NCBI GenBank assembly: GCA_018060985.1
Contig: JAGOUZ010000003.1
Location: 47,356-111,355, forward strand
DNA length: 64,000 nucleotides
Direction of reading: 5' to 3'
Source: Minisyncoccota bacterium
GTDB taxonomy: Bacteria > Patescibacteriota > Minisyncoccia > Phycocordibacterales > SBAW01
The notes beneath the pieces were generated by a model. It saw nothing but the letters and a program-made list of their open reading frames with translations. It was not told the DNA's origin and made no database searches. Each line of letters starts with the position of its first letter. Positions within the stretch are counted from its first letter, which is position 1. Of this stretch, positions 3,665 through 52,045 are shown in pieces. The translations under genes and the position numbers were made by a program.

Positions 3665-4087
3665 ATGTTGCTCCCTAAGAAAGTAAAATTTAGAAAATGG
3701 CACACGATGCGCCGCAACCCAAAGCGCTCGATGGTTGCCTCTCGTGGCATCACGGTAGCCTTTGGCAGCCATGGCCTTAAAGCTATGAGCGAAGGTCGCG
3801 TACGCTCAAACCAGCTGGAGTCGGCCCGCAAAGTAGTGGTCCGCGAGCTCGGTAAGACTGGCAAGATGTGGCTCCGCGTCTTTCCAGACAAGCCATTTAC
3901 TCAGAAGCCGCCCGAGGTAAAGCTCGGTAAGGGCAAAGGTGATCCGGTCGGCTATGAGGTGCAGATCTGGCCAGGTCGCGTCTTGTTTGAAGTAGACGGC
4001 GTACCCGCAGTCGATGCGGTTAAGATGCTTGTAAAGGCAGGGAAGAAGCTCCCGCTTAAGACCCGCGTCGTGTCCCGCACCCACTAA
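3665..4087 (+). CDS. rplP: 50S ribosomal protein L16
   Basis: MLLPKKVKFRKWH... L16 signature. Confidence 0.95.
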   Translation: MLLPKKVKFRKWHTMRRNPKRSMVASRGITVAFGSHGLKAMSEGRVRSNQLESARKVVVRELGKTGKMWLRVFPDKPFTQKPPEVKLGKGKGDPVGYEVQIWPGRVLFEVDGVPAVDAVKMLVKAGKKLPLKTRVVSRTH

Positions 4088-5178: not shown

Positions 5179-5724
5179 ATGGCTACCACAAAACTTTTAC
5201 AGGACCAGCAGAAGTCAGCTTTTAAAGATCTCAAAGACACCTTTGGGTGGACTAACTCTATGCAGACGCCCCGCATCGAAAAGGTGGTTGTCTCGGTTGG
5301 CGTTGGCAAGATGGCAAAAGAGAAGGGCCGTCAGGATATGGTGGCAAACCGCCTCTCAAAGATTACCGGCCAGAAGGCAGCTACTCGCGGTGCCAAGAAG
5401 GCTATTGCAACCTTTAAGACCCGCATCGGTGACCGTGTTGGCTACCAGGTAACGCTCCGTGGCGCACGTGCACAGGACTTTTTGAACCGCCTCGTGCACA
5501 TCGCACTCCCTCGCACCAAAGACTTCCGCGGCATCTCTGCCGATGCTATTGATGAGATGGGTAACTACACTCTTGGTATTAAAGAAAACACGGTGTTTCC
5601 AGAAACTGCAGACGAAGAACTTAAGGATGTGTTTGGTATGGCAGTAACGATTGTGACAACCGCTAAGAACAAGGCAGAGGCAAAGGCCTACCTAACCCAC
5701 CTCGGGTTTCCGTTTAAGAAATAA
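5179..5724 (+). CDS. rplE: 50S ribosomal protein L5
   Basis: 181-aa L5-like ORF. Confidence 0.95.
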   Translation: MATTKLLQDQQKSAFKDLKDTFGWTNSMQTPRIEKVVVSVGVGKMAKEKGRQDMVANRLSKITGQKAATRGAKKAIATFKTRIGDRVGYQVTLRGARAQDFLNRLVHIALPRTKDFRGISADAIDEMGNYTLGIKENTVFPETADEELKDVFGMAVTIVTTAKNKAEAKAYLTHLGFPFKK

Positions 5725-5740
5725 TCAGACGGGATACAAG

Positions 5741-5776
5741 AAAGGCCTTGCGGTTCATTCCGCAAGGCCTTTTTTC
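5741..5776. terminator. bidirectional hairpin/terminator after rplE
   Basis: AAAGGCCTTGCGG-ttcattc-CCGCAAGGCCTTTTTT; the stop codon of the antisense ORF lies in its loop. Confidence 0.6.
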
Positions 5777-6036
5777 ATCAGTCGCTCAGCTTCTGCTCGA
5801 TCCACTTCGTATCCCGAGAAACACTCGACAGGGCCATAGTCGAGGAGGCAGACACAGGTATCTTTATCACCGCAGTACTCCTCGTCGAAGGCCCAGGCGA
5901 TATAACGCCCGTCACTGGTGAGCATTAGGTGGTCTCCTTGGTGGTGCTCGGGCAGCAAGCAGGGAGGGAAGTCGTCCCCCTCACGCATGTACATTACTTC
6001 GAAGAAGGGTATGAGAATTCCGCAGGTTTCTCGCAT
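5755..6036 (-). CDS. hypothetical small Cys/His-containing protein encoded antisense inside the r-protein cluster
   Basis: 93-aa ORF MRETCGILIPFFEVMYMREGDDFPPCLLPEHHQGDH...CGDKDTCVCLLDYGPVECFSGYE with GGGAG SD-like element 7 nt upstream; G/C-ending codon usage unlike flanking r-protein genes; occupies the atypical 515-bp rplE-rpsN gap (ORF track extends it to 6270). Confidence 0.35.
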   Translation of the reverse strand: MRETCGILIPFFEVMYMREGDDFPPCLLPEHHQGDHLMLTSDGRYIAWAFDEEYCGDKDTCVCLLDYGPVECFSGYEVDRAEAERLMKKGLAE

Positions 6037-17297: not shown

Positions 17298-17331
17298 AGG
17301 CGCGCGGTCTCCCGACCGCGCGCCTTTCTTT
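17298..17331 (+). terminator. intrinsic terminator after the RlpA-like gene
   Basis: GGCGCGCGGTC-tcccg-ACCGCGCGCC followed by TTTCTTT. Confidence 0.55.
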
Positions 17332-17349
17332 AATTGTGGAAGTGGGCGG

Positions 17350-17512
17350 GTTCAGTCACGAATAAACTTTTGTCGTCACAAAAGTTTTTCGCGACCCCGG
17401 CTCGCGGTTTTGCAATTGCAAAACATCGCTGCGCCCGTTCAACTCCGACGGCCGTGCCGGCCTTCTCACAGAAAATAAAAATAACCCTGCACAAGGCAGG
17501 GCATTTTTATTT
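17350..17512 (-). mobile_element. miniature insertion at the 3' end of ssrA (copy 1), flanked by direct repeats of the ssrA 3' terminus
   Basis: GTGGAAGTGGGCGG at 17336-17349 repeats 17515-17528 (ssrA acceptor/T-stem); the segment between carries a terminator hairpin, an inverted copy of the ssrA T-arm (17445-17460) and a multi-hairpin core with perfect palindrome TTTTGCAATTGCAAAA (17408-17423). Confidence 0.4.
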
Positions 17513-17890
17513 TGGTGGAAGTGGGCGGAGTTGAACCGCCGTGCAACACAAAAACTCAAAACATATCTACGAGAGGTAGACTACTTTAATTTCTTAGGCT
17601 CAATTGTAGAAAGTAGACAAAATAGGATTGAGTCGCAGCCTCTTAGTCTCAACTACAGAGCAAGACAGACTCTGTAGTCATAGCCCGTTATATAACACCC
17701 GCACCCAGAGCCGGGCTCGCTGGGGCAGACGTGACCTTAGGCGCGCGCAGTGGCGAACGAAAGATCATTCACCGAGAAATACGGTGACGTAACTGATTTT
17801 GCAGTTATGGTTTGAAGTTTTTTATAGCAGATCTCCACTGCTCTCCCGCATGTAATGCGAATATATGTATTGTCTAAGCCTGTCACTCCC
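17513..17890 (-). ncRNA. ssrA: tmRNA (SsrA), 378 nt
   Basis: Minus strand: 5' GGGAGUG pairs with 3' CACUUCC-A-CCA including G3:U70; T-arm GGCGG-UUCAACU-CCGCC (same loop as E. coli tmRNA); encoded CCA; intrinsic terminator immediately downstream; internal ORF GCA...UAA (plus coords 17802-17737) gives tag AKSVTSPYFSVNDLSFATARA; same strand as and downstream of smpB. Confidence 0.75.
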
Positions 17891-24609: not shown

Positions 24610-24682
24610 GGGCGTGTAGCTCAGCTGGTAGAGCAGTCGACTTATACTCGACCGGTCGCAGGTTCGAACCCTGCCGCGCCCA
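24610..24682 (+). tRNA. tRNA-Ile, anticodon UAU
   Basis: Cloverleaf GGGCGUG/CGCGCCC acceptor (one G-U), anticodon loop CUUAUAC, T-loop UUCGAAC; no CCA encoded. Confidence 0.8.
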
Positions 24683-24727
24683 CAAAAGACAGAAAGACCT
24701 GCCCTGCGGCAGGTTTTCTGCTTTTGT
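24683..24727 (+). terminator. hairpin/terminator after tRNA-Ile
   Basis: CACAAAAGACAGAAAGACCUGCC-cugc-GGCAGGUUUUCUGCUUUUGUG long imperfect hairpin with U-run. Confidence 0.5.
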
Positions 24728-24810
24728 GGGAGGCGGAGCGATGTTTTGCAATTGCAAAACCGCGAGCCGGGGTCGCGGGCGACTTTGCTGACGAGCAAAG
24801 TTGACCTGTG
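24697..24810 (+). mobile_element. miniature insertion at the 3' end of tRNA-Ile (copy 2), flanked by a direct repeat of the tRNA 3' terminus
   Basis: CCCACAAAAGACAGAAAG (24679-24696) repeated as ACCACATAAAGACAGAAAA (24811-24829); contains the core GGCGGAGCGATG-TTTTGCAATTGCAAAA-CCGCGAGCCGGGGTCGCG, 43/45 identical to copy 1. Confidence 0.4.
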
Positions 24811-24999
24811 ACCACATAAAGACAGAAAACTGTGCATAACCGTGCTTGTAGCTAAGCGGGAGAAGGAGGATAGTTATGGGACAGGGCTGAGGGGCCTAAA
24901 ACAGGTTTTATCAGCAGTATGGATGTTGGGTGGCGGGAAACCGCCCTTATTCATATCAGGAATTCGTTTGCTCTTTATTTATTTTTATAATTGCGTCCC

Positions 25000-26650: not shown

Positions 26651-28834
26651 CTACTCGAAGTGTGTAGTTTGAGTTCTGCGTAGCAGTGCTGCAAGAAGGG
26701 CCGGATGCTTTTGAAGCTCCGGCTCTTTTTGTATAAGGGTTACCGCTTCTGTGCGGGCTGCTTCTACGAGCTTTAAATTTTTGAGGGCTTCCATTCCTAT
26801 GTCGGAGATGCCCCATTGCTGGCGGCCAGAGAGCTCGCCCGGGCCGCGCTGCATAAGGTCCATTTCGGCAAGTTCAAAACCATTTTTTGCTTTCTTAAGC
26901 GCCTTGAGGCGGTCCAACGTCTTTTCGCCACGAGATTCTGGACAGACAAAGCAGTAGGCTTGGTGGGTGGAGCGCACTACGCGGCCGCGTAATTGGTGAA
27001 GCTGGGAAAGACCAAATCGCTCCGCACCCTCAATGAAGATCATCGTGGCGTTAGGGACGTTAACGCCCACCTCAACTACCGAGGTAGCAACCAAAATATC
27101 GATCTCTTTGTTAGAAAACTGCGCCATGATGTTATCTTTTTCAGCCGGCTTCATTTTGGAATGTAAGATGCCGATGCTGTATTCGGGAAAGACTTCTTTT
27201 TTTAGGCGTTTGGCTTCGGCTTTAACCGACTTTGCCTGGAGAGCAAAGGCCTTGTCTGGATCCGGTTCGTCGATGCGCGGGCATATTACGTAGGCCTGCC
27301 GCCCATCTTTAAGTTCGCGGCGCATAAGTTGGTAGGCATCGCCGCGCTCCTCGGGCTTAACGAGCTCGGTGATAATCGGTTTGCGGCCGGGCGGCATTTC
27401 GTCGAGGAGGGTTAAGTCGAGGTCTCCATATATAGTGAGCGCCAGCGTACGTGGAATTGGCGTAGCGGTCATAGAAAGCAAGTGGGGGAGGCGAACCTCT
27501 TTTTTAGCAAGCTGGCGGCGCTGGTTGGTGCCAAAGCGATGCTGTTCGTCGATAATCACGAGCGCCAGGTGTTTAAACTGCACCGACTTTTGAATGAGTG
27601 CGTGGGTGCCAATCACTACGGGGATCTCACCATTTGCCACCCATTTTAAAAGCTGAGTGCGGGAAATGTTGGTTGCTTGGCCGCGCCGAACTTTGGAAGG
27701 AAACTTATAACACCCCGAGCCGGTGATAAGCCCGATGTTAATAGGGAAGTTCTCAAAATATTTTATAAACGACTCAAAGTGCTGCTTTGCCAGAATTTCA
27801 GTCGGTGCCATATAGGCAACCTGGAGCGTGCCAAATGTTTGGCCCTGCGGGCGCGTGCGTACGGCGGCATAGCTTGCGGTTGCAGCGACTGCGGTTTTGC
27901 CCGAGCCCACATCGCCCTCAAGCAGGCGTGACATCGGGTGACCACTTTGCATATCTTTTAGTATGGCGTTGATTGCGCGGTTTTGTGCCACGGTAGCCGT
28001 AAAGGGGAAGGCGCTCATAAACTCATCAACGGCTGCGGGCGGTGCGTCGACGGTAAAACTTTTTTCTTTGGCCTGTGCCGCACGCTCTCGCTGGCGCTCG
28101 AGCTGGATAAAAAATACCTCTTCAAAGGCAAAACGCTTGCGTGCAGCATCGGCATCCTTAAGATTCTGGGGCGTGTGGATCCACACCAGCGCGGTCTTAA
28201 GGGTGGGGAGGTTGTAGCGCTTGAGGATGTCTGCAGGTATGGGGTCCTCAATTTCCTCGATCACATTTGGCAAAACTTTTTGTACCGCGTGGCGCATCCA
28301 GAGCGATGTTACACCGCGGCTCTCGGGATACTGCGCAAAAAATCCCTTCGCAACAGAACTCTTAGAAAAAGTACTCGGGTCTCCCTCAGGCTTTTCTTCG
28401 GTTTGAATAAACAACCCTTCGTCAGTGGCTGAAACTTTTTCAAGCTGAGGGTTTGCTAAGTACATTTTGGCGCCGGAGCCCGAGACCTTGCCTACCGCTT
28501 TAACCAGTGTGCCGTTTTGATACATCTTGGCGATGTAGGGCTGGTTAAACCACATGCATTTAATTTTGCCGCTCGCGTCTTGAATAAAGCCTTCTGAAAT
28601 TGGGATTCTGCGCTTCCAGGATTTTTTTGTCTCAAGTTTGTCGATCGTGCCAATCACCGTGGCTTCCTGCCCGGCAACAAGGCCGCTAATAGTTGACTCG
28701 TCTCCTGCGGTGTCGTACCGAAAGGGGAAGTGGAAGAGGAGGTCGTGCACAGTGTGCACGTTAAGGCGTGAAAGAGCGCTTTTTTGGGAGTCCATAAGGC
28801 GCAGGTGTTCTGTGAGTGGGTCAGAAAGACGCAT
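26651..28834 (-). CDS. recG: ATP-dependent DNA helicase RecG
   Basis: 727 aa, Walker A GDVGSGKT, DEQHRFG, wedge-domain N-terminus. Confidence 0.95.
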   Translation of the reverse strand: MRLSDPLTEHLRLMDSQKSALSRLNVHTVHDLLFHFPFRYDTAGDESTISGLVAGQEATVIGTIDKLETKKSWKRRIPISEGFIQDASGKIKCMWFNQPYIAKMYQNGTLVKAVGKVSGSGAKMYLANPQLEKVSATDEGLFIQTEEKPEGDPSTFSKSSVAKGFFAQYPESRGVTSLWMRHAVQKVLPNVIEEIEDPIPADILKRYNLPTLKTALVWIHTPQNLKDADAARKRFAFEEVFFIQLERQRERAAQAKEKSFTVDAPPAAVDEFMSAFPFTATVAQNRAINAILKDMQSGHPMSRLLEGDVGSGKTAVAATASYAAVRTRPQGQTFGTLQVAYMAPTEILAKQHFESFIKYFENFPINIGLITGSGCYKFPSKVRRGQATNISRTQLLKWVANGEIPVVIGTHALIQKSVQFKHLALVIIDEQHRFGTNQRRQLAKKEVRLPHLLSMTATPIPRTLALTIYGDLDLTLLDEMPPGRKPIITELVKPEERGDAYQLMRRELKDGRQAYVICPRIDEPDPDKAFALQAKSVKAEAKRLKKEVFPEYSIGILHSKMKPAEKDNIMAQFSNKEIDILVATSVVEVGVNVPNATMIFIEGAERFGLSQLHQLRGRVVRSTHQAYCFVCPESRGEKTLDRLKALKKAKNGFELAEMDLMQRGPGELSGRQQWGISDIGMEALKNLKLVEAARTEAVTLIQKEPELQKHPALLAALLRRTQTTHFE

Positions 28835-50569: not shown

Positions 50570-50594
50570 CAAATTCACATGATAAAATAGGGGT

Positions 50595-50732
50595 ATGGAC
50601 GCCATCACCAACATACTCACGATGCTCCTTAACTTTTTGTTGAGTTTTTTGGAGCTGTTTATAAACTTTATAATCACTGCGCTCACCATGGTGCTTAATT
50701 TTGTTAAGGCGATAGTTGGTACTGTGGTCTAG
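50595..50732 (+). CDS. hypothetical 45-aa hydrophobic peptide
   Basis: MDAITNILTMLLNFLLSFLELFINFIITALTMVLNFVKAIVGTVV; 2 nt upstream of the next ORF. Confidence 0.3.
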   Translation: MDAITNILTMLLNFLLSFLELFINFIITALTMVLNFVKAIVGTVV

Positions 50733-50734
50733 TC

Positions 50735-51037
50735 ATGCGTATGTCTAAAAAGTCCCGAATTATAGTCGCAGTGGTGTGGGGGATACTGACGCTGCCCACC
50801 GCGTTTTTTGCCATGGTGCTCTTTGGATTGGCTCGTATGGATACGGGCTCTGTAAACCCTGAGCCGCAGTTACTTGCACTGTGGGCACTGCCTGTCGTGC
50901 TCCTCGTTTCTTGCATTGCAGAACTTATGCTTGCACGCGGGGCTGATACCCGCAGCAAAGCTGGGCTTGCAAAAGTCTTCGCTTTTTTACCGGTAGGGAA
51001 TATTCTTATAATCGCAGTACTTATTTTGGCTCGGTGA
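50735..51037 (+). CDS. hypothetical small membrane protein (100 aa)
   Basis: Three predicted TM helices. Confidence 0.45.
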   Translation: MRMSKKSRIIVAVVWGILTLPTAFFAMVLFGLARMDTGSVNPEPQLLALWALPVVLLVSCIAELMLARGADTRSKAGLAKVFAFLPVGNILIIAVLILAR

Positions 51038-51180
51038 GCGATTGAAAAAAGCCTTAAAATACGCTACTCTGCGGAAGTTACTTGTTTGTCGTGCACATAT
51101 CCGCCGTTGTAAGCAAAGCTTGCAACGACTGCATTCGTAAAAAATGAAAATATAGGATATTCTCATTTTGTTACTCATTT

Positions 51181-51253
51181 GCCGTTGTAGCTCAGTTGGT
51201 AGAGCAACGCCATGGTAAGGCGTAGGTCGCCGGTTCGATTCCGGCCAACGGCT
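51181..51253 (+). tRNA. tRNA-Thr, anticodon GGU
   Basis: Acceptor GCCGUUG/CAACGGC, loop AUGGUAA, T-loop UUCGAUU; CCA encoded (51254-51256). Confidence 0.85.
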
Positions 51254-51258
51254 CCAGG

Positions 51259-51285
51259 CCAGAGTAGCTCAGTTGGATGAACAGC
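51259..51285 (+). pseudogene. tRNA 5' fragment (acceptor 5' strand plus D-arm remnant)
   Basis: GCCAGAGTAGCTCAGTTGG matches tRNA-Thr(CGU) 5' end 18/19, then diverges into a 110-nt hairpin-rich segment. Confidence 0.4.
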
Positions 51286-51392
51286 AAACTGCTTTGCGGT
51301 TCATCCGATTCTGCTTTGCAGAAACGGCTGTTGTTCATTATTATGAACCGGCAGTAGGAGGGACGAGCGGCGCCTATTTTAGTTGCGTGAGA

Positions 51393-51465
51393 GCCGGAGT
51401 AGCTCAGTTGGTAGAGCGGCGGTATCGTAAACCGCAGGTCGCCGGTTCAATCCCGGCCTCCGGCT
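51393..51465 (+). tRNA. tRNA-Thr, anticodon CGU
   Basis: Acceptor GCCGGAG/CUCCGGC, loop AUCGUAA, T-loop UUCAAUC. Confidence 0.85.
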
Positions 51466-51471
51466 CTCACG

Positions 51472-51514
51472 TTGGTAAACCGCAGGTCGAGGGTTCCCCG
51501 GCCTCTGGCTCCGA
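51472..51514 (+). pseudogene. degenerate duplicate of the tRNA-Thr 3' half
   Basis: GTTGGTAAACCGCAGGTC-GAGGGTTCCCCGGC-CTCTGGC-TCC parallels GGTAAACCGCAGGTC-GCCGGTTCAATCCCGGC-CTCCGGC of the intact gene; its acceptor strand CTCTGGC complements the upstream 5' fragment GCCAGAG. Confidence 0.5.
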
Positions 51515-51571
51515 ATTTTTATAAAAAGAATGACCGCGGGTCCCTTGGTAGGGGCTCGCGGTCTTATGCGT

Positions 51572-52045
51572 TTACTTCGGCACCACAGCCCGGATGACCT
51601 CGCGGTGAGGTTCAAAGAAGTCAGGCATCTGGTCGATCGAGGCGAGCTTGAAGGTCGTAACCTCGAACTCCTCGCCCTTCTCTCCCGGGCGCAATATGAC
51701 TTGGCCCATGATCGGGCGCATCACCTTTGTGGGTACGCCTGCCGCATAGAAGTATTGCTCGTACTCATCGCCGGTACGGTAGTTGGTCTTTTTCCTCTGC
51801 AGGAGCAGATGAAGACGGATAGAGTCGAGCAGGGGGATACCCGTCTCTTCCAAGAACTCGCGGCGCGCCGCCGCTTCCGGCTTTTCGCCGAGCTCGATCT
51901 GTCCGCCGGGGAGTTTCCAGGCAGGCTCGTCACGATAGATTTCTCGCACGAGTGCGATGTCGGTATCGTTGCAGATCCCGGCGATGAGCACATGCCCATC
52001 GCTCGGTGGATGAGTGTAAGTCACTACGGCCTCCGTTTTTCTCAA
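51572..52045 (-). CDS. NUDIX hydrolase
   Basis: Nudix box GGQIELGEKPEAAARREFLEETGI. Confidence 0.85.
   Translation of the reverse strand: MRKTEAVVTYTHPPSDGHVLIAGICNDTDIALVREIYRDEPAWKLPGGQIELGEKPEAAARREFLEETGIPLLDSIRLHLLLQRKKTNYRTGDEYEQYFYAAGVPTKVMRPIMGQVILRPGEKGEEFEVTTFKLASIDQMPDFFEPHREVIRAVVPK

Follow-up and report, generated by a model that had tools for sequence, protein, structure and literature searches.

Transfer RNA (tRNA) genes are used as attachment (att) sites by integrative elements; Williams is said to have sorted these sites into sublocation classes in 2002, and a 3′ tRNA copy that starts in the anticodon loop is reportedly their classical signature. Other arrangements in which genes are broken by, or lie beside, small elements have been described. 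In phage T4, SegB is a freestanding homing endonuclease gene in a tRNA cluster, located between intact genes with no split gene (PMC2330249; also PMC13096335), and a mobile-element model of tRNA disruption in Caldiarchaeum subterraneum involves a 1.8 kb insert with a recombinase and an intron-containing tRNA-Thr(GGU) (Sugahara et al. 2012, PMC3293823). Group I introns occur in tRNA genes of Patescibacteria, including divergent ones in tRNA-Thr(GGU), and some contain HNH genes (PMC13011429; bioRxiv 10.1101/2025.07.03.662931). In Archaea and red algae, split and permuted tRNA genes consist of complete halves joined by a splicing endonuclease and a ligase (PMC4390854, PMC4033280), and “fractured genes” are broken by a freestanding endonuclease gene and rescued by split inteins or subunit assembly (PMC2677866). 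None of these closest analogues describes a complete tRNA gene nested in the halves of its own homolog. Here we analyze such a locus, an intact tRNA-Thr(CGU) gene between two fragments of another, in a 64,000-nucleotide stretch of a patescibacterial genome (Minisyncoccota bacterium, contig JAGOUZ010000003.1, positions 47,356 to 111,355), referred to as the window. Loci and contigs of other genomes compared with the window are labeled with L-numbers (L167, L140, etc.). The nested pattern is recurrent and apparently undescribed: the literature searched for this phylum, on the nesting of tRNA genes and on cassettes with GIY-YIG and tRNA genes, yielded only analogues and no such report.

The intact tRNA-Thr(CGU) gene (51393–51465, + strand) was called by ARAGORN and, at full length, by Rfam (68.1 bits), and has the acceptor strands GCCGGAG/CTCCGGC, a discriminator T and no encoded CCA. 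Upstream lies an intact tRNA-Thr(GGU) with an encoded CCA (51181–51256, +; ARAGORN, Rfam 72.6 bits), identical in L163 and L167. One base past this CCA begins the 5′ fragment of a dead tRNA-Thr(CGU) gene, which we call X (51258–51276, +; positions 1–19, GCCAGAGTAGCTCAGTTGG). It contains the acceptor 5′ strand GCCAGAG, U8/A9, the D-stem 5′ strand and part of the D-loop, and is identical at 19/19 positions to the tRNA-Thr(CGU) genes of L167, L008, L020 and L125. The 3′ fragment of X (51475–51513, +; positions 35–75, GTAAACCGCAGGTCGAGGGTTCCCCGGCCTCTGGCTCC; repeat families D3 and D4) starts 9 nucleotides (nt) past the discriminator of the intact gene, or 8 nt past the ARAGORN gene end. It begins at G35, midway in the anticodon, crosses a damaged T-arm and ends with CTCTGGC, a discriminator T and CC, and its first 15 nt are identical to positions 35–49 of the intact gene. 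The acceptor strands of the two fragments, GCCAGAG and CTCTGGC, pair with each other and not with those of the intact gene.

Rfam was scanned over the whole window at the gathering threshold and over 51000–51700 at E values up to 10. In the latter region ARAGORN and Rfam call two tRNAs only (Thr(GGU), 51181–51256; Thr(CGU), 51393–51465/6); beyond these the permissive Rfam scan gave noise, with no group I intron and no group I/II core. The initial annotation of this DNA had placed a tRNA 5′ end right after tRNA-Thr(GGU)-CCA, then a hairpin-rich stretch, an intact tRNA-Thr(CGU) and a degenerate 3′ half, with fragment acceptors complementary to each other and not to the intact gene. Each of these elements is present, and two of the lengths need correcting: the stretch of hairpins measures 116 nt, not ~110 nt, and the gap before the 3′ half is 9 nt after the discriminator, not 7 nt. 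The search by tRNA-finding tools that it had proposed does call normal genes here, yet the fragments are significant matches outside the called genes. Neither of the two results that it had named as refuting came about. The Thr(CGU) locus is also crossed by a spurious open reading frame (ORF) of 83 amino acids. Elsewhere in the window, a 16-nt tRNA-like match at 28019–28034 was discarded as a chance match inside a 727-amino-acid ORF.

The 116-nt spacer between the 5′ fragment and the intact gene (51277–51392) contains three predicted hairpins (z = –3.1) and is composed of a few short motifs, repeated or inverted. The first hairpin (ATGAACAGCAAA-CTGC-TTTGCGGTTCAT; 51277–51304, +) begins at the first inserted base. 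In the rest of the leader (51305–51385, +), fold prediction and repeats indicate two more hairpins (~51309–51322 and 51326–51355); it has no noteworthy ORF, and a single weak promoter-like match (51315–51344) came from a scan that was not above expectation. The spacer ends in CGTGAGA (51386–51392, +), one strand of a 14-nt, 100% complementary inverted repeat (I2). Its partner, TCTCACG (51465–51471, discriminator included), opens the trailer (51465–51474, +), which then continues with TTG to the junction. Comparison of the spacer with the inter-tRNA regions of L001, L002, L004, L005, L163 and L167 and with loci containing HNH genes gave no signal.

Relatives were sought by PrfB, with identities of up to 80% in the genome scan, up to 68% in the metagenome scan and 93% from a protein search with contig look-ups. 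In a close relative so found (L167, PrfB 93% identical), an identical tRNA-Thr(GGU) is followed by a 27-nt spacer and an uninterrupted tRNA-Thr(CGU) (GCCAGAGTAGCTCAGTTGGTAGAGCGGCGGTATCGTAAACCGCAGGTCGCCGGTTCAATCCCGGCCTCTGGCTCCA; acceptor GCCAGAG/CTCTGGC) directly upstream of prfB. The sole difference between this gene and the intact gene of the window is pair 4:69 (A:T vs. G:C). The 3′ fragment aligns to the L167 gene with a score of 62, whereas none of 500 shuffles scored above 30 (36/38 identities plus one 3-nt gap), and its two substitutions and its deletion all fall in the T-arm. Downstream of it come CCGAA, an AT-rich stretch, a terminator hairpin and a Nudix gene, homologous to the flank of the tRNA in L163; with this flank retained, the 3′ fragment sits at the end of the original gene. 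Since the fragments match both ends of the L167 gene, A4:T69 included, they are two halves of one dead gene, and sequence comparison identifies X as the ortholog of the uninterrupted tRNA-Thr(CGU) of L167.

It is thus well supported that X was split by a 198-base-pair (bp) insert (51277–51474) bearing a live copy (G4:C69), with the loss of X20–34 (15 nt). This agrees with the first of two explanations in the initial annotation, an ancestral tRNA split by a segment with a second copy, and L167 supplies the uninterrupted ancestral arrangement that it had proposed to look for in relatives. With 15 nt missing and the T-arm damaged, X is a pseudogene. Its joined halves, in which positions 20–34 are absent, give no tRNA; the fragments match a relative’s tRNA significantly and attract no tRNA call, and their anticodon is served by another, intact gene. 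Since a replacement tRNA came with the insert, nothing was lost to the cell. The neutral flanks of the window and L163 differ by about one-third (an estimate by eye) and the fragments are barely decayed, so that the insertion looks recent.

The inverted repeat around the live gene forms a clamp: the leader strand CGTGAGA pairs with TCTCACG, so that the acceptor stem grows from 7 to 14 bp. No such clamp was found in the seven other tRNAs of the window or in the X of L167, and the flanks of the inner gene differ from the native flanks of X. Across all loci, acceptor-stem extensions of at least 4 bp occur in 10/278 tRNAs scored, and all ten are Thr(CGU) or Gln(CUG). Plausibly, the clamp prevents mispairing between the inner tRNA and its homologous outer halves.

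Beyond the view of the initial annotation were the recurrence of this design in unrelated lineages, the stem-forming flanks of the inner gene and the endonuclease genes in related cassettes. Further nests were found by inspecting the clamped Thr(CGU) and Gln(CUG) genes. In L087, a clean 108-nt insertion in the D-loop of a resident tRNA-Thr(CGU) carries a very different tRNA-Thr(CGU); the outer halves can be joined into a perfect tRNA-Thr(CGU), and their acceptor is unlike the inner one. In L140 the nesting is double: an intact tRNA-Thr(CGU), with a 12-bp clamp and 8 further bp, lies within a split gene (L140-B; acceptor GCCGCCT/AGGCGGC, clamp CCCGTTAGA/TCTAACGGG), which itself lies within the remnants of a third gene (L140-A). 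In L121, tRNA-Thr(GGU)-CCA is followed by a 15–16 nt 5′ fragment, an intact tRNA-Thr(CGU) with a 10-bp clamp, and then GTAGAAC of the old D-arm. Four nests concern tRNA-Gln(CUG): outer positions 1–23 and 29–72 flank the insert in the complete genome L022 (CP174359.1), the insertion lies in the T-loop in L028 and in the anticodon loop in L054, and in L089 the outer acceptor is unlike that of the inner gene. The outer acceptor strands of the window, L087, L089 and L140-B pair mutually and differ from the inner gene, which marks them as halves of a different allele and not as duplications flanking that gene. Decay of the outer copies is visible in L054, L089 and L140-A.

For the seven inserts that were measured (window, L087, L028, L054, L022, L140-B and L121), co-folding of the flanks gives a stem (–21 to –45 kcal/mol), and the inner tRNA occupies the tip of the resulting hairpin. 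By eye, the window clamp resembles the clamp strands shared by L054 and L140-B, with one compensatory change. The inserts of the window and of the tRNA-Gln nest in L022 both open, at the first inserted base, with a hairpin of the form ATGAA...CTGCTT...TTCAT; the two are 22/30 identical by eye, and the differences lie mostly inside the stem. The pattern ATGAA-N(5–9)-CTGCTT-N(4–9)-TTCAT occurs once in the window and once in 295 loci (L022), and was derived from these two inserts themselves, so that this test of a shared end is partly circular. With that reservation, the window has what characterizes the nests: complementary outer fragments around a gene of the same anticodon, a clamp and a shared insert end.

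Two side observations concern similar loci. In L008 (2170–2245), two or three partial copies, each made up of the leader and roughly the first 23 nt of the tRNA, stand in tandem directly upstream of an intact tRNA-Thr(CGU). Short GC-rich hairpins, e.g., TTGCCCCGCC-TGT-GGCGGGGTGAA, lie in the D-loop of tRNA 5′ fragments in L089 (5752–5775), L019 (38–77) and L037 (11454–11481), and their ends are shared with the clamp of the L121 inner tRNA. These hairpins may represent the insert in an empty form, or small structured tRNA introns of the kind noted in this phylum (bioRxiv 10.1101/2025.07.03.662931).

Endonuclease genes adjoin related pairs of tRNA fragment and intact tRNA. In seven loci, a small GIY-YIG ORF (~80 amino acids; Pfam PF01541, E about 1e-13) separates a 5′ tRNA fragment from an intact copy of the same tRNA. 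The tRNA is Gln in L037 (11497–11736), L064 (8710–8946), L152 (4089–4244), L140 (7386–7628) and L089 (5788–6048), Thr-GGU in L019 (100–294) and Met in L145 (2675–2902). In L089, the GIY-YIG gene and a clamped inner tRNA stand together inside the split outer gene. In L163, which is as close to the window as L167, the interval from the identical tRNA-Thr(GGU) to the Nudix gene contains a 146-amino-acid HNH-like ORF (652–1092) and, directly downstream of this ORF, a tRNA-Thr(CGU) allele that is very different. An HNH-like ORF occupies this position, directly upstream of tRNA-Thr(CGU), in six loci (L163, L004 at 5463–5900, L048, L093, L117 and L123), and the spacer of L002 retains a remnant of the HNH C-terminus (3888–3994). 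Among close relatives the ORF is sporadic, and it is accompanied by distinct tRNA alleles.

We therefore read the window insert, with a probability of about 0.6, as the ORF-less relic of an endonuclease-driven tRNA-replacement cassette. It would belong to a family of such cassettes in Patescibacteria, in whose fuller copies a small site-specific endonuclease (GIY-YIG or HNH) would cut the resident tRNA gene. Repair of the break by copying the cassette-bearing allele would then leave the old gene in pieces around the new one, and nests could build up because the new gene is again a target. In the window, the 198-bp segment replaced X from the D-loop to the anticodon and introduced a complete tRNA-Thr(CGU) together with a leader and a trailer of its own. 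Pairing of the flanks should let the inner tRNA fold, and then be released by ribonuclease P and 3′ processing, without mispairing. That endonucleases cut tRNA genes, and so drove the insertion in the window, is what we infer from these loci. A cassette of this kind fits the recurrence, the restriction to particular tRNAs, the loss from D-arm to anticodon, the foreign flanks, the swapping of alleles between close relatives and the stacking in L140. The instance in the window is a relic in decay; apart from its working inner gene, no current function is obvious.

Several observations weigh against this reading. Neither the insert nor the rest of the 64 kb contains an HNH or GIY-YIG gene or a remnant of one. 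The Pfam match of the HNH-like ORF is below the curated cut-off, cutting of tRNA genes by the GIY-YIG and HNH proteins is itself putative, and the GIY-YIG cases mostly have a 5′ fragment only and no full nest. Positions 5–68 do not differ between the inner and the outer gene of the window, so the inner copy would not be immune to an enzyme recognizing that region. Insertion sites vary between D-loop, anticodon loop and T-loop, which fits several enzymes or a non-enzymatic route. The left half of the locus, with the left junction, is represented by the contig of the source metagenome-assembled genome (MAG) alone.

The main rival is accidental break repair or uptake of foreign DNA, in which X would have been patched by microhomology joining or template switching and a tRNA unit copied from the sister chromosome or a related strain. 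We consider this unlikely, though it deserves to be taken seriously. Short repeats do mark both junctions (GTTGG at 51272–51276 and 51470–51474; GTA at X19–21 and X35–37), where GTAAA can be assigned to either partner. The loss of 15 nt is what resection would leave, the insert has no ORF, and its spacer is built from the few repeated or inverted motifs described above. What such accidents would not be expected to produce is uniformity, and there are at least seven other nests of the same design, in different lineages and two tRNA species, all clamped; the insert-end hairpin common to the window and L022 also speaks against them. The other four explanations are lesser ones. Scars of tyrosine or serine integrases, left when separate events displaced the 3′ and 5′ parts and the elements were later deleted, correspond to the second explanation of the initial annotation, repeated site-specific recombination. 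A partial 3′ tRNA copy that runs from the anticodon loop, downstream of an intact gene, is indeed the classical att-site signature. In an archaeal tRNA-Thr locus, a recombinase element and a new tRNA even accompany a 5′ fragment (PMC3293823). Nevertheless, this origin is improbable here, and the earlier suggestion is not supported: the 3′ fragment follows the intact gene after just 9 nt, the space between the repeats contains neither an integrase nor an element body, there is a 5′ fragment as well, and the intact gene does not combine a host 5′ part with an element 3′ part as a chimera would, both of its acceptor strands being unlike the fragments. Two independent events and two deletions would be needed, and the clean 108-nt insertion of L087 leaves no room for an element.

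Tandem duplication is more improbable still. The fragments would be what is left of the first and third of three tandem tRNA-Thr(CGU) copies. In its favor, the 9 nt after the 5′ fragment match X20–28 at 5/9 positions (23/28 overall; repeat family D2), parts of the first hairpin loosely resemble X38–73, and L008 provides a precedent for tandem partial 5′ copies upstream of the gene. Local alignment of the spacer with the rest of X is, however, not significant (score 18, shuffle mean 15.8, p about 0.25). Both fragments carry the matching A4:T69 whereas the middle copy has G:C, their boundaries (19 and 35) delimit complementary sets, the outer halves of L087 join into a perfect gene, L167 has a single copy, and nests occur elsewhere. 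We give very little credence to an assembly artefact that would have fused two strain alleles, A4:T69 and G4:C69, in the contig. The source is indeed a MAG, and its left junction has no second assembly: exact look-ups with Nudix, PrfB, the 100-amino-acid ORF upstream of the locus and the 83-amino-acid ORF found no further left-junction contigs, and homologs of the 100-amino-acid ORF led only to contigs that end before the Thr genes. The right half, in contrast, reappears exactly in L081 and L082, two Logan assemblies of this species made with another assembler from separate sequencing runs, which cover the 3′ part of the intact gene, the linker, the unchanged damaged 3′ fragment and the Nudix gene. 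Both of these contigs end inside the intact tRNA-Thr(CGU), which could reflect low coverage or strain variation at the locus. Shared repeats outside the tRNA body are at most 15 nt, probably too short to mislead k-mer assemblers, the 3′ fragment has mutations of its own, and the same architecture appears in the complete genome L022 and in several long contigs. An equally small chance attaches to a functional, intron-like arrangement in which the outer halves would be joined or held together at the RNA level after excision of the inner tRNA, with two tRNAs per transcript. Fold prediction for all 259 nt of the region gives nested helices in which the outer acceptor strands pair (z = –6.5), the outer gene of L087 is perfect apart from its insert, and unusual tRNA introns exist in Patescibacteria (PMC13011429). 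In the window, though, an outer gene without positions 20–34 and with an unpaired T-stem can form no functional tRNA, and no group I/II core was detected; outer copies have also decayed in L054, L089 and L140-A. To our knowledge, moreover, bacteria do not have the archaeal splicing endonuclease.

If the endonucleases do cut tRNA genes, the cassettes would represent a new survival strategy of homing elements, with a spare gene instead of an intron. A broader proposal, which we regard as possible but doubtful, is that Patescibacteria host an undescribed class of selfish cassettes that invade a tRNA gene, are made harmless by a clamped spare tRNA and not by splicing, and stack as in L140, the spare being a target in its turn. 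The clamp would ensure correct folding of the spare between the broken halves, and in freshly invaded genes such as L087 the outer halves, still linked by the clamp once the inner tRNA is excised, might even work as a two-piece tRNA. If so, such a two-piece tRNA would be a bacterial route to split tRNA genes. The origin of interrupted and split tRNA genes is a long-standing question that has been argued mainly from archaeal genomes, with indirect evidence for mobile elements. Within one bacterial phylum, the loci compared here offer its stages side by side: an intact ancestor (L167), a fresh insertion (L087), decaying halves (window), a stacked nest (L140) and endonuclease-bearing loci (L089, L140 and L163). 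Given such cutting of tRNA genes, a mobile-element origin of split tRNA genes would also become directly testable. On the practical side, annotation tools pass over the tRNA fragments and odd flanks that nested loci yield, and such loci can break assemblies.

The surroundings of the locus follow the order ligA, gatC, gatA, tRNAs Met/Met/Asp, a small membrane ORF, tRNA-Thr(GGU), the nested locus, Nudix (– strand), prfB, ftsE and ftsX, and the order Thr(GGU)–Thr(CGU)–prfB is kept across many Paceibacteria. The PrfB of the window is identical to MBP9711052.1, and the 100-amino-acid ORF upstream of the locus to MBP9711050.1 (KBD50_02210), both encoded on a 115,563-bp contig of a Paceibacteria (Parcubacteria) MAG. 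Most tRNAs of the window have no encoded CCA. One tRNA of the window is a tRNA-Ile with the anticodon UAU (24610–24683), and the transfer-messenger RNA (tmRNA; 17513–17890) has an unusual tag, AKSVTSPYFSVNDLSFATARA.

An unannotated structured element of ~100–200 nt was observed 19–90 nt downstream of tRNA and tmRNA genes, on the same strand. It occurs twice in the window, after the tmRNA (17331–17454, –) and after tRNA-Ile(UAU) (24732–24814, +), and also in L004, L019, L023, L086, L096, L102, L116, L145 and others. The element starts with the reverse complement of the T-arm of its own tRNA and ends with a direct copy of that tRNA’s last 14–21 nt; its core reads GnC-GGAG, hairpin, CGAG-Gn′C, GGGGTCGCG, hairpin, CGTGACC. 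The 42-nt cores of the two copies in the window differ by one base. A search by nhmmer gave 32 matches in about 1.3 Mb of loci, with tandem copies in L102, L116, L041 and L182; 15 pairs were 91% paired, compared with 27–43% in slid controls, and 14 pairs showed compensatory changes. No Rfam family matches the element, for which a small integrative element and a guide-like RNA are candidates. In the Thr(CGU) spacer it was detected neither by nhmmer nor by the covariance model R1, the best match being the tRNA itself (E = 0.22), and pairwise comparison of the spacer with the two elements of the window scored weakly above shuffles (p about 0.003 and 0.013). A scan of viral contigs with the core motif was unspecific and gave one true match, L182. 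In L167 (85–300, compared with 50571–51037 of the window), the 5′ half of the element follows tRNA-Asp and runs into the last ~25 codons of the small membrane ORF; this ORF is complete in the window and appears to have been truncated in L167 by an element-associated deletion.

The nested tRNA-Thr(CGU) shares traits with each of the known systems and matches none of them. As with the att-site tRNA copies of prophages and islands, a 3′ direct repeat stands downstream of an intact gene, and the incoming DNA supplies what keeps the tRNA working. The window differs from these elements in having a 5′ fragment, a whole tRNA gene on the insert and no chimera, integrase or element body, and the insertion sites of the nests include the D-loop. 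The likeness to SegB lies in the small GIY-YIG or HNH gene beside tRNA genes and in the proposed cleavage of the cassette-free allele, followed by copying together with flanking tRNA sequence. Here, by contrast, the resident tRNA is broken and a spare delivered, the hosts are bacterial chromosomes and not phages, the copy in the window has no endonuclease gene, and the activity is a predicted one. The Caldiarchaeum locus likewise has a tRNA-Thr 5′ fragment, an inserted segment and a complete tRNA-Thr, in an arrangement that varies between close genomes. No 3′ fragment nests the new archaeal gene, however, whereas the inserts described here are bacterial, clamped and 0.1–0.3 kb long.

Group I introns of Patescibacteria come from the same phylum and are 0.2-kb inserts in tRNA genes that standard finders miss. 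They lie within the anticodon loop and have a ribozyme core and complete exons, whereas the window insert has no group I match, removes 15 nt and contains a tRNA. Among the loci compared, tRNA-Thr(GGU) of L020 (4809–5066; also L018, L022, L036, L048, L097, L101 and L108) is interrupted after the anticodon by ~190–220 nt and was missed by ARAGORN and Rfam; these inserts match the known divergent group I introns (PMC13011429), and tRNA-Asp has a similar interruption in L028 and L104. With split and permuted tRNA genes, the locus has in common that 5′ and 3′ parts are separated in the DNA and that flanks are able to pair; its halves, unlike theirs, are incomplete and decaying, and the nested copy carries the function. 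As in fractured genes, a host gene stands in two pieces around a small endonuclease cassette, and here the rescue comes from a spare gene within the insert.

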